From positions 50,530,001 to 50,594,000 of the forward strand of contig OX597816.1 of the NCBI GenBank assembly GCA_951406725.2: a stretch of DNA of 64,000 bases, read 5' to 3'. Source of the stretch: Octopus vulgaris. Its lineage: Eukaryota. Both the position numbers and the translations under genes were made by a program. Of the stretch, positions 14,059-55,261 are shown in pieces; position 1 is the first letter of the stretch; every line of letters begins with the position of its first letter. Under the pieces are notes generated by a model. That model did not search any database. It had not been told where the DNA came from and was given only the letters and a program-made list of their open reading frames with translations.

Positions 14059-14283
14059 ATTACTGTATCATAAAAAATAAAAGTAACAGGAGTAATGCAA
14101 TGCCAAGGCGACTGAGATCTTTCAGAATTGAAAGGAAATAAAACAAAAAAGCTCGCTACTCCATAGACGATTGTTCGTAATCTGAGAAGAGTTACACAAG
14201 TTTAAGAATGTAGTCAAGATTTGAATAAAACTATGTATCTAGCGCTTTCGTTTCTTTCAAGTATTCATTGTGGATTATTTCTA

Positions 14284-14686
14284 AGGCGGCGAGCTGGCAG
14301 AAACGTTAGAATGCCGGGCGAAATGCGTAGCCATATTTTGTCTGCCGTTACGTTCTCAGTTCAAATTCCACCGAGGTCGACTTTGCCTTTCATCCCTTCG
14401 GGGTCGATAAATTAAGTACCAGTTACGCACTGGGGTTGATGTAATCGACTTAATCCGTTTGTCTGCCCTTGTTTGTCCCCTCTAAGTTTAGCCCCTTGTG
14501 GGTAATAAAGAAATAGGTACTTCGTCTGTCTTTTCGTTACGTTCTGAGTTAAATTTCCGCTGAGATCGACTTTACCTTTCATCCTTTCTGGGTCGATAAA
14601 TTAAGTACCAGTTGCGTACTGGGGTCGGTCTAGTCGACTGGCCTCTCCCCCAAAATTTCGGACCTTTTGCCAATAGTAGAAAAGAT
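14284..14686 (+). mobile_element. SINE family B, dimeric
   Basis: Head GGCGGCGAGCTGGCAGAAACG; 184-nt module 14332-14515; second unit ends in the alternative CCCCCAAAATTTCG...TAGAAAAG tail. Confidence 0.88.
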
Positions 14687-32367: not shown

Positions 32368-32566
32368 GATGATTGTAATATCATCTGCTAATCCAAATGT
32401 TTGTAAAAATAAAGACAGAGAAGTTAGAAGTGTGTCTGTTCATTAAATAGAACTGCTAGAGTACGGAATCTAACATGTTCGAATTATGATCGATTCTTTC
32501 GCCTGCCGGCTGCATTCCATTTTCTATATCTACGTCAAAAATCACTCACTAATATTACTAGTGTTA

Positions 32567-32950
32567 AAGGTGGTGAGCTTGACACGATGAATTTAGCACA
32601 TCGAGCATAAAACTTAGCGGCATTTTATCCGTCTTTAAGTTCTAAGTTCAAATTCCGCTGCTGTCGACGTTGCATTTCATACTTTCGGGGTTGATAAAAT
32701 AAGTACCAGTTCAACACTAGGGTCTATGTAACTGACTTGCCTCTGCCTCGGAATTACTGGTCTTGTGCCAAAATACGAAACCAATATTACTAATGTTTGA
32801 CGTAAGGCGGTGAGCTGATAGAACCTTTATCATGCCTGGCATTACGTCTGTTTTTACGTTCTGAGTGCAAACTGCATTGAGCGCTCCGGTCGATTAATCA
32901 AGTAAACCCTTTTTCCGAACTTACTGATCTTGTTCGAAAATTTGAGACGA
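32567..32950 (+). mobile_element. Two tandem old SINE-B monomers
   Basis: Heads AAGG(T/C)GGTGAGCT at about 32567 and 32804; bracketed and separated by AATATTACTA(G/A)TGTT. Confidence 0.75.
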
Positions 32951-35665: not shown

Positions 35666-36272
<607 letters not shown>

Positions 36273-38503
36273 ACACCGGACATAAACATGAAACACAAAC
36301 ACTTCATGTCCATAATACAAGCCATATGTGACAAATATGTCCCAATGTGCAGGGCCAGCACACACAAGAATAAAAACAGGATCCCTAGAGAAAGGAGGAT
36401 TCTTATGAGACGACGGACAAGGATTGCAAACCGCCTGAGCAAGCACACCAAAAGTGGTGAGAAGTCTCGGCTCGAAAGAATGCTAATGGAAACTGAGAAA
36501 AGTCTACATCAGTCCCATGAAAAGGAGAGAGCAGATAAAGAAGCTTGGGTAATAGAAAATATAAAATCAAACCCTAAAGCTTTCTTTAAGTTTGCCAAAG
36601 AGACAGCCACAGTGCACCAGAGAATAGGACCTCTCTTCCAAAAAGATGGCTCTCTCACAGGAAATCCCACGAGGATAAGTGAAATACTGAACGAACAGTT
36701 CCAAAGTGTGTTCACTACACCTCTAGGACACAGGCAAGTAAACAACCCAGAAGAATTCTTTGCCACTTTACCAGCGGCCAAAGAGACAAAAATTGAGTAC
36801 ATCAACATCGAAGAAGATGATATCACACTAGCCATTGATGAGATTGACACAAACTCAGCTGCTGGACCTGATGGATTCCCAGCGATCCTTCTCAAATCGT
36901 GCAAACGAGCCCTTGCAAAACCGCTACAGCTTCTTTTTCAGAGCTTTCTTGCAAGTGGTAAGCTCCCAGTCAAACTGAAAGAGGGGGTAATATGCCCTAT
37001 CCATAAGGGAGGTAGCAGAGCAGATGCTAAAAATTATAGGCCTATCTCTCTGACCTCACACATCAGCAAAGTCATGGAACGAATAGTCCGTAAGAAACTA
37101 ATCATGTTCCTTGAAGAAAATGACTTACTGTCTGACACCCAGCATGGATTTCGACCAGGTAGAGGCTGCCTAACACAGCTCCTGCAACACTATGACTGGG
37201 TGTTGAAACAGCTACTAAATGGCTCAAATGTGGATGTAATATATCTTGACTTTGCAAAAGCCTTTGATAAAGTCGACCATGGTATGATCTGTCACAAACT
37301 GCGTGGTCTCGGCATAGGCGGGAAACTTGGAGAGTGGCTGCACAACTTCCTAAAAGACAGAAAACAGGCAGTTGTGAGCAATGGAGCCACCTCCAGGGAA
37401 ACGCAAATAACAAGCGGTGTCCCACAGGGCACTGTCTTGGGGCCACTGATGTTCATAGTGGCCCTTTCAGACATGCCTTCAGTTGCTACGATGACCACCC
37501 TTGCTAGCTATGCAGATGACACAAAAGTCTCCCACGCAATACAAAACCCTGAAAATATTGCGCATCTGCAACATGAGCTGGACACAATATACAGGTGGGC
37601 TGAGGACAACAACATGCAGTTTAATGCAGGTAAGTTCCAGGCCCTGCGCTACTGGCACACAAAGGTAAATGACGTGAAGACTGGATACACTGGCCCAGGA
37701 AGAATTGCAATCCCTGAGTCAAAATCAGTGCGTGACCTGGGCATTGACATGAGCAATGATGCATCTTTCCAAATGCATATTGCTAATCTGGTGATAAAAT
37801 GCAGACGGCTAGCTGGATGGATTCTCCGAACTTTCAGAACAAGAGAGAAGGAGACACTGATGGTCCTATGGAAAACATTTGTCCTCAGCCGCTTGGACTA
37901 CTGCTCCCAACTTTGGTCACCACACAATATAAAACAAACAGCAGAACTCGAAGCAACTCAGAGAAGCTACACAAAGAAAATCGTCTCAATGCAAAATGTC
38001 AGCTACTGGGAAAGACTGAAGGTATTAAACCTCTTCTCCCTGGAGCGGAGGCGGGAGAGATATGCAGTGATATACATCTGGAAAATCCTGGAGGGTCTTG
38101 TCCCAAACTTTGGCATTCAAAGTTACTCCAACCGCAGAACAGGGCGCCGCTGCGTGGTGCCAAGGATTCCAACATCACCATCAAAATACAGGTCCAGATA
38201 CTGCAACAGCTTGGGTTTCAGAGGACCACAGCTCTTTAACATCCTCCCTAAATGCCTGAGAGACTTACATGGTGTGGATGTGGGTTTCTTTAAAACTAAA
38301 CTGGATCTCTTCTTGTTGGGAGTCCCAGATGAACCTACCTCACGACAGGAGACACGGATGCGGGCAGCAGCATCGAACTCCCTTGTTGATCAAGTGCCAC
38401 GTATCAGAGGTGGATTCACAAACTAGTGTAGCTCATTCAGCGGTGGTGCCCCAGCATGGCCGCGGCCTTCGGGCTAAAACATTTTTAAGGATTTAAGGAT
38501 TTA
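36273..38503 (+). mobile_element. Young 5'-truncated CR1-group LINE
   Basis: Uninterrupted RT ORF, short 3' UTR with a hairpin, tandem tail TTTAAGGATTTAAGGATTTA running into (TA)n; endonuclease domain absent. Confidence 0.92.
36288..38426 (+). CDS. Non-LTR retrotransposon reverse transcriptase (ORF2 lacking the APE endonuclease domain), 712 aa
   Basis: GPDGFP, NYRPISLTS, QHGFRPGR, YLDFAKAFDKVDH, GVPQGTVLGP, YADD, RDLGI, LERRR motifs; no stops. The N-terminus is post-endonuclease linker (ICDKYVP), with an in-frame stop at 36267 just inside the inverted arm. Confidence 0.95.
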   Translation: MKHKHFMSIIQAICDKYVPMCRASTHKNKNRIPRERRILMRRRTRIANRLSKHTKSGEKSRLERMLMETEKSLHQSHEKERADKEAWVIENIKSNPKAFFKFAKETATVHQRIGPLFQKDGSLTGNPTRISEILNEQFQSVFTTPLGHRQVNNPEEFFATLPAAKETKIEYINIEEDDITLAIDEIDTNSAAGPDGFPAILLKSCKRALAKPLQLLFQSFLASGKLPVKLKEGVICPIHKGGSRADAKNYRPISLTSHISKVMERIVRKKLIMFLEENDLLSDTQHGFRPGRGCLTQLLQHYDWVLKQLLNGSNVDVIYLDFAKAFDKVDHGMICHKLRGLGIGGKLGEWLHNFLKDRKQAVVSNGATSRETQITSGVPQGTVLGPLMFIVALSDMPSVATMTTLASYADDTKVSHAIQNPENIAHLQHELDTIYRWAEDNNMQFNAGKFQALRYWHTKVNDVKTGYTGPGRIAIPESKSVRDLGIDMSNDASFQMHIANLVIKCRRLAGWILRTFRTREKETLMVLWKTFVLSRLDYCSQLWSPHNIKQTAELEATQRSYTKKIVSMQNVSYWERLKVLNLFSLERRRERYAVIYIWKILEGLVPNFGIQSYSNRRTGRRCVVPRIPTSPSKYRSRYCNSLGFRGPQLFNILPKCLRDLHGVDVGFFKTKLDLFLLGVPDEPTSRQETRMRAAASNSLVDQVPRIRGGFTN

Positions 38504-43135: not shown

Positions 43136-43601
43136 GATAGATAAATCGACAGACAGCCACTTAGATGCATTTACACAGTCGGTGAGGTGAGGGAGACGCA
43201 ATAAAACTGATTAGGAAAACAGGACGGAAAGATAAATTGATAAAAATAGAATCAGGTGAGAGGTGTGGACAAGAAAGAAAAGCGGACAGATAAGGAGAGT
43301 CAAACGGTCGGTGTGGGGATATTGTCAAATACGCAAGGTAATAAAAGTTTCCTGGAAAAAGACAAATGATCCCGTTATTACAAAACGGCATTTATTCGAA
43401 AGGACTCATAAAGGATTTTATTGGCTTTGTCAATATTTATTTCAGCAAGAGCGTACTAAAGGGCGGCCCACCATTCCCCTCAGGTACCGCATTCAATGTA
43501 CTTCGTTATATCAAATGTTTTCCATATATAAATTCAGTATTTCTCACGCCTCCCCCATTATCGCTTTTACACTGCAGATATTATTGCGGCAATTCATATT
43601 A

Positions 43602-44003
43602 TTGGTTTCGAATTTTGGCACAAATTCCAGCAAGTTTGAGGGAGTTTTAAGTCGATTCCATCGATACCAATGTTGAAATGGTATCTATTTTATCGATCTC
43701 CAAAATGATGAAAGGCAAAGTCGACCTCGTCGATATCTAAACTCGGAACATAATGACGGACGAAATACCTATTTCTTTATTACCCACAAGGGGCTAAACA
43801 TAGAGGGGACAAACAAGGACAGACATAGGTATTAAGTCGATTACATCGATCCCAGTGCGTAACTGGTACTTTAATTTATCGACCCCGAAAGGATGAAATG
43901 CAAAGTCGACCTCGGTGGAATTTGAACTCAGAACGTAACGGCAGACGAAATACCTCTAAGCATTTTGCCCGGAGTGGTAACGTTTCTACTAGTTCACAGC
44001 CTT
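43602..44003 (-). mobile_element. SINE family B: old head and body with a young 185-nt module
   Basis: Module 43770-43954 is close to the other modules; head 43955-44003 and distal unit 43602-43769 are heavily diverged. Confidence 0.85.
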
Positions 44004-44574
44004 AAACACAATTCAGTCACAGGGTCTGGCAGTTTCCACAGCAACTGTCTTCAAAGTCTGTCAATATCAATATGCATTTCCTCTTCACAGGGAAAATCAT
44101 TTCTTCTGCAAGAATTCACTAGATTCCGCTTCTATATTGGGAAATTTTCTCTCTCAGTTGTCATCCCGGAAGCAATCGCTCGCATAAATATACCGTCCGA
44201 TTTCACTAACCTTCCGTATCATTATATTATCAAATAGGTAAGTGAAACCATAATATAACCGTATCTTAGAGAAAAATAGTCTCCAAAAGAGCAAGGCTTT
44301 TGCAGCGGCAGAGAACTCTTACATGGCATGCTTATTTCTCTAGCAAAAGTCTCCACACATTTGTTTAATTTATCATAAATCAATTTTAAAAACTAACTAC
44401 AGAGATGACCACAGCATTCTACAAATGAACTTAATCAGCTTGGGAGTCATTTGAGAGCTACTGCGACGTATCTGTTTGCGTGATATACAGAACCGTAAGT
44501 GAATGAAAGCATAGAATTTACTCAGGAACATGAACAACTAATTCTGGGCCTCATTCTATTGAGTTTCGTAAATA

Positions 44575-44782
44575 TGTTTGTGCCTATGTTTGTCCCCCAC
44601 CATCGCTTGACAACTCGTGTTGGTGTGTATACGTTCCAATAACTTATCAGTTCGGCAAATGTCGCTGGCATATTACGTATCAAGCTTGGAGAATTAAATA
44701 GTGGCGCCGTTGCGTTCGACTAAAATTTTCGAAGGCGGTGCCCCAGCATGGTCGCAATGTAAGTGACAGAAACAAGTAAAGG
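44575..44782 (+). mobile_element. 3' half of a SINE family A relative
   Basis: TTTGTCCCCCACCATCGCTTGACAAC...GGCGGTGCCCCAGCATGGTCGC...GAAACAAGTAAAGG followed by (TA)n. Confidence 0.75.
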
Positions 44783-49108: not shown

Positions 49109-49443
49109 TCCTCTCAAATTATTATTATTATTATTTCCCTTCAAATTATTATTATTATAATTTCGTTTCAAATTCCGCCGAGGTCGACGTTGTCTTTCAT
49201 CCTTTCGCAGTTGGTAAAATAATTAACGAGAAGGTGCCGGGGTCAATGCATTATACTTGGCTCCTCCCCGCTAAATTCGTGGCTTTGTAATAAAATTTGA
49301 AACCAATATTATTATTTTTAAAACACCGATTTTGTATTTAAACATGCTTCTACCGATTACATAAGGGGTAAAGTTTAAACCATCGCGTTACAGGAAAATT
49401 ATGGAGCATCTTCGTGGCTACTAGGCCAAATAAAAATAACGTA

Positions 49444-53966: not shown

Positions 53967-55261
53967 TAATGTTGTACCCAAAAGTAACCGACAACGTTCT
54001 CAGTAGGACATACTCATTGTAGTTCATACTTCCATCGCTAGAATCCACTTGATATGACCCTCAGACATCTGTCTATCGACTGGCATTGTCGGTTGCACTC
54101 ATACTGTCACGTGGTGCGTCTTTGCAATGCTTCTTCCCAGATCGTCGAATTTTGCGATGGGTGATACGAAACAACAGCGTGCTTCCGTGATATTCTGTTT
54201 TCTGCTGGGGAAAACGGTGGACGAAACAATTGTCAAGCCTCAAAAAGCTTACAAAGACGAGGTCATGAACAAAACACAAGTTTACGTGTGGTTTCCACGC
54301 TTTAGGAATGGCCACTTGTCACTTGAGGACCAACGTCGTTCAGGGCAACCGTCAACCTCCCGAACGAATGAAAGCATCATGAAAATTTATGAACCGTCAC
54401 CGAACACATGACAAACTTGTTGATATGACTGGTGTGTTCTGGAGATCCTGCAACAAATTTCGCGTTAGGATGCGCGACTGAATAGAGTTGCAGCAAAATT
54501 TGTGCCTCGCTTACTCACGAAAGATCAAAAACAGTTACGACCGAATACGTGCCGTGAACTGAAAAATTAGGTGGAAGTTGATCTGGACCTTTTTATGGAA
54601 GGTATCACTGGTGGCAAAAGCTGGTGCTACGGAAATTGCAGATGTGGTAGAGGTGAAGAAAAAAGGGACGGAAGCGTTAACAGGCATCGTTTCACAAGAC
54701 TTATAGCACTGCTTCGAATTATGGAAACCGCGCCGAGACCGATGCATTGCTTCAAATGGAGAACACTTTGAAGGCAATAAAAGTGTAAACAAAGGCGGCG
54801 AGCTGGCAGAAACGTTAGCACGCCGGGCGAAATGCTTAGCGGTATTTCGTCTGCCACTACGTTCTGAGTTCAAATTCCGCCGAGGTCGACTTTGCCTTTC
54901 ATCCTTTCGGGGTCGATTAAATAAGTACCAGTTACGCACTGGAGTCGATATAATCGCCTTAATCCGTTTGTCTGTCCTTGTTTGTCTTCTCTGTGTTTAG
55001 CCCCTTGTGGGTAGTAATGAAATAGGTATTTCGCCTCTCCTTACGTTCTGAGTTCAAATTCCGCCGAGGCCGACATTGCCTTTCATCCTGTTGGGATCGA
55101 TAAATTAAGTACCAGCTGCATACTGGGTTCTAATTGACTGGTCCTCTACCCCAAAGTTTCGGGCCTTGTGCCTAGAGTAGAAAAGAATAACAGTGTAAAT
55201 ATGTAAAAATAAGGGAATATAAACAATATTGCAAAATTTACGCTTTCTTTTGGGGCAGAGC
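53967..55261 (+). mobile_element. Internally deleted mariner interrupted by SINE-B
   Basis: ORF 54127-54411 QRASVIFCFLLGKT...KTQVYVWF.RF..G..SLED..RSGQPSTS (mariner DNA-binding domain); AAKFVPRLLT; C-terminal CIASNGEHFEG; weak TIR match. Confidence 0.85.
54792..55185 (+). mobile_element. SINE family B, dimeric, with 14-bp TSD
   Basis: GGTATTTCG at 54841 and 55025 (184 nt apart); AATAA(A/C)AGTGTAAA at 54776-54789 and 55186-55199. Confidence 0.9.

Follow-up and report, generated by a model that had tools for sequence, protein, structure and literature searches.

Self-insertion of a SINE at a single nucleotide is already known in Alu, and the SINE-B dimers described here would be a variant of it. 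The Alu hotspot lies at position 133, with 15,759 sense events (Levy, Schwartz and Ast 2010, PMC2836564; for this and the other papers cited by PMC number, our statements refer to the passages that treat the point at issue). Among the other systems that come close, the 'anneal' junctions of R2, where the cDNA end pairs with homologous target sequence upstream, are seamless with as little as 11 bp of upstream homology (PMC11331408), and for SINEU-3 and Tx1-Mar, 313 of 347 insertions lie in Mariner-N4_AMi (Kojima 2015, PMC4494074). Insertion of young into old elements has been put forward in a 2026 review as an untested idea (PMC12988792). A tRNA-derived SINE is defined in SINEBase as an interspersed element under 1 kb with at least 100 copies (PMC3531059), the tRNA criterion being A and B boxes together with 60% identity or more to a tRNA across 60 nt (PMC3531059).

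The window, that is, the whole 64-kb stretch of DNA analysed here, is AT-rich animal DNA dense in microsatellites, and its repeats have an octopus-like look. SINE-B falls within the general definition (under 1 kb, interspersed, at least 100 copies): BLAST searching with the 54.8k copy as query places it at about 15 loci in the window, five of them dimers and ten monomers or fragments. Its A- and B-box-like motifs were recognised by eye; ARAGORN called 0 tRNA genes, and the Rfam tRNA model was unmatched in two dimers. Run over the whole window, Rfam gave only microsatellite look-alikes among the 150 of 231 matches listed. Compared by eye with the BivaCORE sequences given in the supplement of PMC4824008, SINE-B lacks the CCTTG.GCAAG motif and has only a short likeness at TAAAT.AGTAC. 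Scans elsewhere with SINE-B patterns yielded no further copy, with seven matches in metagenomes and 0 and 1 in prokaryote genomes, all eight spanning only 18-22 nt, and 0 and 0 in viral contigs. A second SINE family was noticed at 12 places between 13850 and 61443 of the window, with a CCTTGGGCAAG core and (TA)n-rich ends; its copies are 77-93% identical to the 18k copy and carry the CCTTG.GCAAG motif.

Layout and junction of the dimers

All five dimers, which measure 393-430 bp, have a single head (47-49 nt), followed by a module (184 or 185 nt) and then a distal unit restarting at GGTA(T/C)TTCG. In five of five, unit follows unit in sense orientation at a single-nucleotide site, and each of these loci in the window contains only one junction. 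Four of the dimers are laid out as follows (TSD, target site duplication).

6681 to 7098, minus strand: dimer 6.7k, with a young head (GTAGCC variant), the module at 6866-7049 and a long-tailed distal unit of similar age
6663-6680 and 7099-7116: perfect 18-bp TSD of dimer 6.7k
11102 to 11531, plus strand: dimer 11.1k, with a head 7/47 off and the module at 11151-11334; its distal unit is long-tailed and more decayed, TSD 12/14
14283 to 14684, plus strand: dimer 14.3k, with a young head (GTAGCC variant) and the module at 14332-14515; its distal unit is short-tailed and has the old-type T at +14, TSD 9/10 (13/16 by eye)
54792 to 55184, plus strand: dimer 54.8k, with a young head (1/47 off) and the module at 54841-55024; its distal unit is short-tailed and 16/116 off, TSD 13/14 (54776-54789 and 55186-55199)

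The five internal duplications listed by the sequence-only reading were all recovered, with a period of 184 nt at 6865/7049, 11151/11335, 14332/14516 and 54841/55025 and of 185 nt at 43769/43954. Its identical junction stood in part: AAAGAAATA followed directly by GGTATTTCG is exact in three of the five copies and one base off in each of 14.3k and 54.8k, and all five share GAAATA/GG (the slash marks the junction here and below). The start of the module is not identical throughout, because the proximal units of 6.7k and 14.3k, which belong to the GTAGCC head variant, open with C instead of G. The distal tails fall into the three classes first described, long (6.7k, 11.1k), short with CCCCAAA (14.3k, 54.8k) and old with GAAACCAAT (43.6k), and the latter two classes are also present as free monomers (11.5k for the short tail; 32.5k and 49.2k for the old one).

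Seven long-tail 3' ends were counted in the window, five of which are junctions and two the ends of distal units; one more copy is cut by the window end and stands outside this count. For five of seven ends in the window to fall at one SINE position, a binomial estimate gives p ~1e-18, based on some 17 such positions, a rough count, in 128,000. Four of 24 public runs were matched to 43150-44750, namely X8 (organism D), X11 (organism A) and X13 and X14 (organism E). Between 17,549 and 126,154 contigs matched per run, with nearly all depth on repeats, and contig counts in the runs are not copy counts. The loose-end figures that follow come from the best 24 of 1,826 rows, and those for X8 and X13 are lower bounds. 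Contigs leading from the module start back to a long-tail end were common in two of the four runs, with at least 429 of 115,461 in X8 (agreement 0.75) and 111 of 17,549 in X11 (agreement 0.80); the junction was absent among the six rows listed for X13 or X14 and may be rarer in organism E. C at the first base of the proximal unit accounts for 9-12% of depth in X8 and X11 and for less than 1% in X13 and X14. Contigs that stop exactly at 43770 and continue into unrelated AT-rich sequence numbered at least 486, 418, 401 and 53 in the four runs, so free long-tailed copies exist that end in GAAATA, exactly where the module does. The feature is genuine and recurs.

Three structures belong to the insertion site, the tail and the 3' junction, given here for the 43.6k copy.

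43942 to 43971, minus strand: predicted head hairpin with a 13-bp stem including G-U pairs and a 4-nt loop (predicted RNA folds)
43782 to 43794, minus strand: putative tail stem-loop GCCC-CTTGT-GGGT (fold of the 54.8k tail and alignment)
43761 to 43778, minus strand: 3' junction GAAATA/GGTATTTCG, with a predicted 5-bp stem and AGGT loop

Head hairpins were predicted in six copies at -8.9 to -17.0 kcal/mol. The insertion site lies at the 3' edge of the predicted loop, between 43955 and 43954, so that the module begins with the first base after the loop; the sequence there, TTAGC/GG, contains no A-tract. The tail ends in 6 nt that are complementary to +3..+8, the sole such hexamer site in the 231-nt unit; this was noticed post hoc, and 130 of 100,000 shuffles match likewise. 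A second helix of 5 bp joins +11..+15 to the tail in the consensus fold. Folds of the whole unit were not more stable than shuffles (z -0.11 and -0.03). The short-tail class has the same CTTGT loop between GGC and GCC, and this stem-loop is a possible recognition signal for a partner LINE.

TSDs of variable length are significant at five of nine copies (null fraction at most 0.002), borderline at one (0.028) and missing at three. At 11090-11760 the 11.1k dimer immediately precedes the head of an older monomer (11549), and the pair is flanked by three decayed target copies (ATGATATAGTGTAG, ATGATATGTTGTAG and ATGCCATATTGTAG), which points to repeated insertion into one TSD. At 32550-32950 an old monomer (TSD 14/15) lies a few bases in front of a decayed head (32804) in the same orientation, another instance of insertion closely upstream of a SINE head. 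A 5'-truncated old monomer at 49160-49312 sits within a (TTA)n microsatellite, its tail continuing into AAT repeats; AT-rich targets seem to be favoured by free SINE-B ends. A Mos1-type transposase HTH fragment at 54058-54411 (PF17906, E 3.8e-8) belongs to a mariner remnant, and the 54.8k dimer appears to sit in the 3' part of this remnant.

Ages of the units and the 43.6k copy

Ages were referred to the majority of the five proximal units. Modules differ from it at 8-14 of 184 positions, and the first 120 nt of the distal units at 4 (6.7k), 11 (11.1k), 14 (14.3k), 16 (54.8k) and 24 (43.6k); over 120 nt, a module and its own distal unit are 15-24 mismatches apart. In four of the five dimers decay has gone further in the distal unit than in its own module, and the two are equal at 6.7k. 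Over the shared part the mean pairwise distance is 0.106 for modules versus 0.198 for distal units, a gap that in part reflects the subfamily difference. Position +14 is T in six of six old monomers and in three of three short- or old-tailed distal units but in none of the five modules; +14T and +16T are common variants in the public-run contigs. Counting private changes, the short-tailed distal units have 13 and 13 and the free monomer of that class 15 (per 148 nt), and modules have 5-15 in 184. At 11.1k the distal unit (22/183) is significantly older than its own module (9/184, p=0.015); for 14.3k and 54.8k pooled, 26/296 private changes in the distal units versus 21/368 in the modules are not significantly different (p=0.13). 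Pooling distal units against modules gives 62/649 versus 36/736 (p=0.0008), a figure from hand-picked trios on which we do not rely. The TSDs of 14.3k and 54.8k, with 1-3 mismatches, fit either age.

Heads differ from the majority at 3 (6.7k), 7 (11.1k), 2 (14.3k), 1 (54.8k) and 10 (43.6k) of 47 positions. An old head at 11.1k was suspected from its 7/47 (p=0.06) and dropped, as the change-point search did not support it. What had been proposed as a young headless unit inserted site-specifically into older family members now divides: insertion at a fixed site is clear at 43.6k and agrees with the older distal units in four of five dimers, whereas headlessness is not supported, the heads at 6.7k, 14.3k and 54.8k being no older than their modules. 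The GTAGCC variant is found in both the 6.7k and the 14.3k head, over different distal tails, so that the head would have arrived with the module. Given the young heads of three dimers, and free copies that end at the module's last nucleotide, the invader was likely not headless; the 184 nt then simply measure the stretch between the site and the natural 3' end, where free long-tailed copies stop too. Most likely the incoming unit was an ordinary full-length SINE RNA. The 18-bp TSD around 6.7k is perfect, as previously reported, but it does not prove that dimers move as a unit, since a resident's own TSD survives internal insertion and dimer TSDs are thus uninformative on dimer mobility.

The 43.6k copy is made up as follows.

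43955 to 44003, minus strand: old SINE head, resident-derived, 10/47 off the proximal majority; it includes the A-box-like motif and the hairpin's 5' arm and loop
43770 to 43954, minus strand: young 185-nt module (body and long tail to the natural 3' end GAAATA), 8/184 off the five-module majority
43917-43929, minus strand: B-box-like motif within the module
43602 to 43769, minus strand: old distal unit, the rest of the resident with its GAAACCAAT tail, 24/120 off the module majority

In this copy the head carries its last mismatch at -1 and old-type variants at -42 and -12, the first mismatch of the module is at +39, and mismatches of the distal unit start at +12, the unit differing at +12, +14 (old-type T) and +16. 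The nine mismatches to the 54.8k head found by the sequence-only reading were confirmed, over 47 aligned columns, and so was its contrast of a decayed distal unit with a near-consensus module (24/120 versus 3/120 off over the same part, Fisher p=2e-5). With CpG sites removed, head plus distal unit differ at 23/129 positions and the module at 5/159 (p=3e-5). The old-type variants of the head and distal unit are common to free old monomers. A site-blind change-point search in head plus module placed the change at position 47, which is the site, with a permutation p=0.0065, or ~0.03 over five copies; no significant change-point was found in the other four dimers (11.1k, p=0.18). No significant TSD surrounds the copy (best 7/8, null fraction 0.058), whereas a TSD of 14-18 bp and module age would be expected to show at most 3 mismatches with p>0.94. 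On the simplest reading, 43.6k is an old monomer with a young segment acquired later, both switches falling within ~12 nt of one position. Evidence for insertion into an older resident is strong at 43.6k, and such insertion is plausible at three further dimers.

Public runs were also checked for a monomer allele at this locus. Two X8 contigs cover the flanks (43246-43577 and 43946-44278), and none in that run spans the module; X13 and X14 barely cover the flanks, and across the runs 0 contigs bridge the module. Skips of 184-195 nt among the 15 of 527 joints listed have sides under 30 nt and were taken as paralogue artefacts. One contig of X11 (organism A; the run is guessed to be RNA) agrees without a single difference with the old tail and the unique flank at 43470-43634, and may be intronic RNA or DNA carry-over.

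Routes to the junction

We give a probability of about one half to retro-insertion, at a fixed site, of full-length RNA from the young SINE, in which homology would make the 5' junction seamless, as it does in R2. A break would arise in a resident SINE beside the loop of the head hairpin, and RNA of the long-tailed subfamily would be reverse-transcribed there. The reverse transcriptase of a partner LINE would prime from the resident antisense strand, which ends in ...GAAATACC, and copy the RNA from its 3' end. The other end of the cDNA would anneal to homologous resident sequence with no end-joining; because the cDNA is homologous to the resident, this annealing would leave no second head, no new TSD and a constant gain of 184 nt. 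Annealing at the break would keep the old head, as at 43.6k, and strand exchange through the head would let a young head replace the old one, as at 14.3k and 54.8k and perhaps at 6.7k. The least certain step is a putative tethering of the RNA 3' end to the sense-strand arm behind the site (6 bp + 5 bp).

Target-primed reverse transcription has this polarity, a fixed 3' junction and a 5' junction that varies. The retro-insertion model can draw directly on the fixed 3' junction at the tail's natural end, on the site at the loop edge and on residents of three tail classes. At 43.6k, the young segment is bounded on both sides by old sequence at the same position. Weighing against the model, the tail is complementary to the sense strand, whereas ordinary target priming uses a different pairing, and the primer end CC is unmatched in the RNA end. 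In addition, a significant change-point was obtained in only one of five copies, 6.7k combines a perfect TSD with a distal unit of the same age as its module, and no monomer allele turned up in the public runs.

Neither a site-specific endonuclease nor a partner LINE was found in the window. A LINE with a 718-aa frame and a reverse transcriptase domain (36270-38426; PF00078, E 5.5e-30) is present; at 36270-38500 it ends in two stem-loops and TTTAAGGA repeats, and we take it to be CR1/L2-like. As a partner of SINE-B it was rejected, its 3' end and tail being different. A minus-strand frame at 3201-3572 contains a GPGYWKLN motif, presumably typical of L1/Tx1 ORF2, and has no Pfam match. Tx1 elements include target-specific families.

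More than one route may be operating. Homing of a SINE subfamily into its own family by RNA guidance, similar to prime editing and without a site-specific enzyme, strikes us as unlikely. The tail end would here mimic the 5' arm of the hairpin and pair with the 3' arm of a loop-cut resident; 184 nt would be added, and the resident promoter could be overwritten. If true, decayed copies would become young-headed dimers with no new genomic sites used, in perhaps ~10^5 events per genome if the window is typical (extrapolated from 5 per 64 kb).

The junction might also form between RNAs, the 3' end of a full-length long-tailed RNA being joined to the loop-cut 3' half of another one. After a cut in the anticodon-like loop, the tail would pair with the freed arm and be joined by RtcB-type ligation or a reverse-transcriptase jump to the 3' half, which starts GGUAUUUC; the dimer RNA would then insert elsewhere with a fresh TSD. 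Consistent with this, the distal unit begins at the first base past the predicted loop, the final 6 nt of the tail match +3..+8 of the sense strand by complementarity, which suits ligation or a template jump after loop cleavage, and the consensus fold brings both ends of the headless unit together. The young heads of three of five dimers and the TSDs around four of five fit as well, and tRNA halves, RtcB ligation and template switching are documented for L1 chimeras (PMC13174262). The 43.6k copy, however, whose young module sits between an old head and an old distal unit and which lacks a recognisable TSD, would stay unexplained, and transcripts would be required from decayed copies of three tail classes, whereas partners in human Alu/L1 chimeras are described as active at the same time (PMC13174262). 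The ends of single modules close with high probability in only two of five (0.94-0.98; the others 0.004-0.2), and covariation supports just 1 of 47 pairs of the consensus fold. We consider formation between RNAs unlikely. A few founding dimers could instead have served as masters, with monomers expanded at a hairpin break by repair from dimer donors or by gene conversion. Such repair would produce an invariant junction without special priming and would account for 43.6k if the break lay at the hairpin; donors are plentiful, because the junction form is abundant in run contigs, and 6.7k does have two units of equal age. The outcome is nevertheless asymmetric, with 47-nt heads wholly young in three dimers and old-type bases within 14 nt of the junction in three of three informative distal units; if tracts ended at random over the 120-nt shared region, such clustering would occur about once in 600 (0.12 cubed, an estimate). 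One master cannot explain the dimers, because modules come in several variants and distal units in three tail classes, which also sets them apart from a true dimeric SINE with both arms from one master and of one age. Origin by repair is in our view distinctly unlikely.

The circular intermediate that had been suggested earlier is now disfavoured and in our judgement very unlikely. A headless 184-nt RNA would be circularised after loop cleavage, reverse-transcribed and integrated by homology. The ends of the headless unit can pair in predicted folds, closing a GAAAU[AGGU]AUUUC hairpin, and 43.6k retains its old head to the last base, both as such a circle would have it. Young heads occur in three dimers although a circle would bring none, and two of these heads share a variant over different distal tails; a circle could be primed anywhere in 120 nt, yet the switches cluster at the junction. 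Rolling copying predicts trimers and longer forms, but none of the five loci has more than one junction. Retrozymes and other ribozyme-containing circles feature a self-cleaving ribozyme motif, and in the two dimers searched no Rfam ribozyme family was matched at E up to 10, although a ribozyme of a type not yet described may be present. The four candidate mechanisms differ in their predictions and are separable genome-wide.

Comparison with known systems

If retro-insertion into residents is true, a young and highly abundant SINE subfamily has placed the majority of its 3' ends at one position in its relatives, a self-targeting safe-harbour strategy of a non-autonomous element without a known site-specific partner. 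Head replacement would then be a route by which dead copies regain a promoter, and repeat-age landscapes and SINE presence/absence markers would be distorted, because one locus holds two ages. Ohshima and Okada are said to have described, in 1994, the tRNA-derived octopus SINEs OK, OR1 and OR2, one with a consensus near 410 bp. As this is close to the 393-430 bp of the dimers, the dimer may already stand as a family consensus. In full-text literature searches we found no account of the SINE-B junction or of self-targeting by octopus SINEs. The word 'nested' is absent from the passages seen of a 2026 octopus repeat annotation (PMC13282606) and of the 2026 review (PMC12988792), and the corresponding parts of PMC4758252, PMC4824008, PMC5804259, PMC3531059 and the SPLASH preprint give family names or nothing on the junction. 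A likeness of the site to the R2 target was considered and dropped.

Like SINE-B, the squamate sSat has a fixed, box-B-containing SINE segment tandemly duplicated at many loci (PMC10702118). It forms homogenising arrays of many units, ascribed to unequal recombination (PMC10702118), whereas SINE-B loci in the window hold two units each, which come from different subfamilies and ages, and the repeated unit ends at the natural 3' end (PMC10702118 for sSat). L1 chimeras resemble the dimers in the head-to-tail fusion of RNAs at defined ends and in tRNA-half break points (PMC13174262); they are described as single events with a fresh TSD and with tRNA halves mostly in antisense (PMC13174262), which 43.6k does not fit. 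SINEU-3, like SINE-B, hits mostly another repeat and shows tandem re-insertion around one TSD (PMC4494074); it differs from SINE-B in inserting into a DNA transposon to which it is unrelated, in generating a TSD there, and in having a known partner LINE that shares its target (PMC4494074). With R2, SINE-B shares a precise 3' junction and a seamless 5' junction at which the shared sequence is not duplicated (PMC11331408); R2 is autonomous and inserts into 28S rDNA with its own site-specific endonuclease, whereas SINE-B is non-autonomous and targets its own family (PMC11331408). The Alu hotspot and the SINE-B site both receive sense insertions at a single nucleotide of their own family (PMC2836564). 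In Alu, the poly-A tail primes on an A-rich linker, and an identifiable inserted element lies between both resident parts; the SINE-B site has no A-tract, and each of the five dimers has one head, which is replaceable (PMC2836564 for Alu). Unlike the Alu hotspot, the SINE-B site takes five of the seven long-tail ends in the window.
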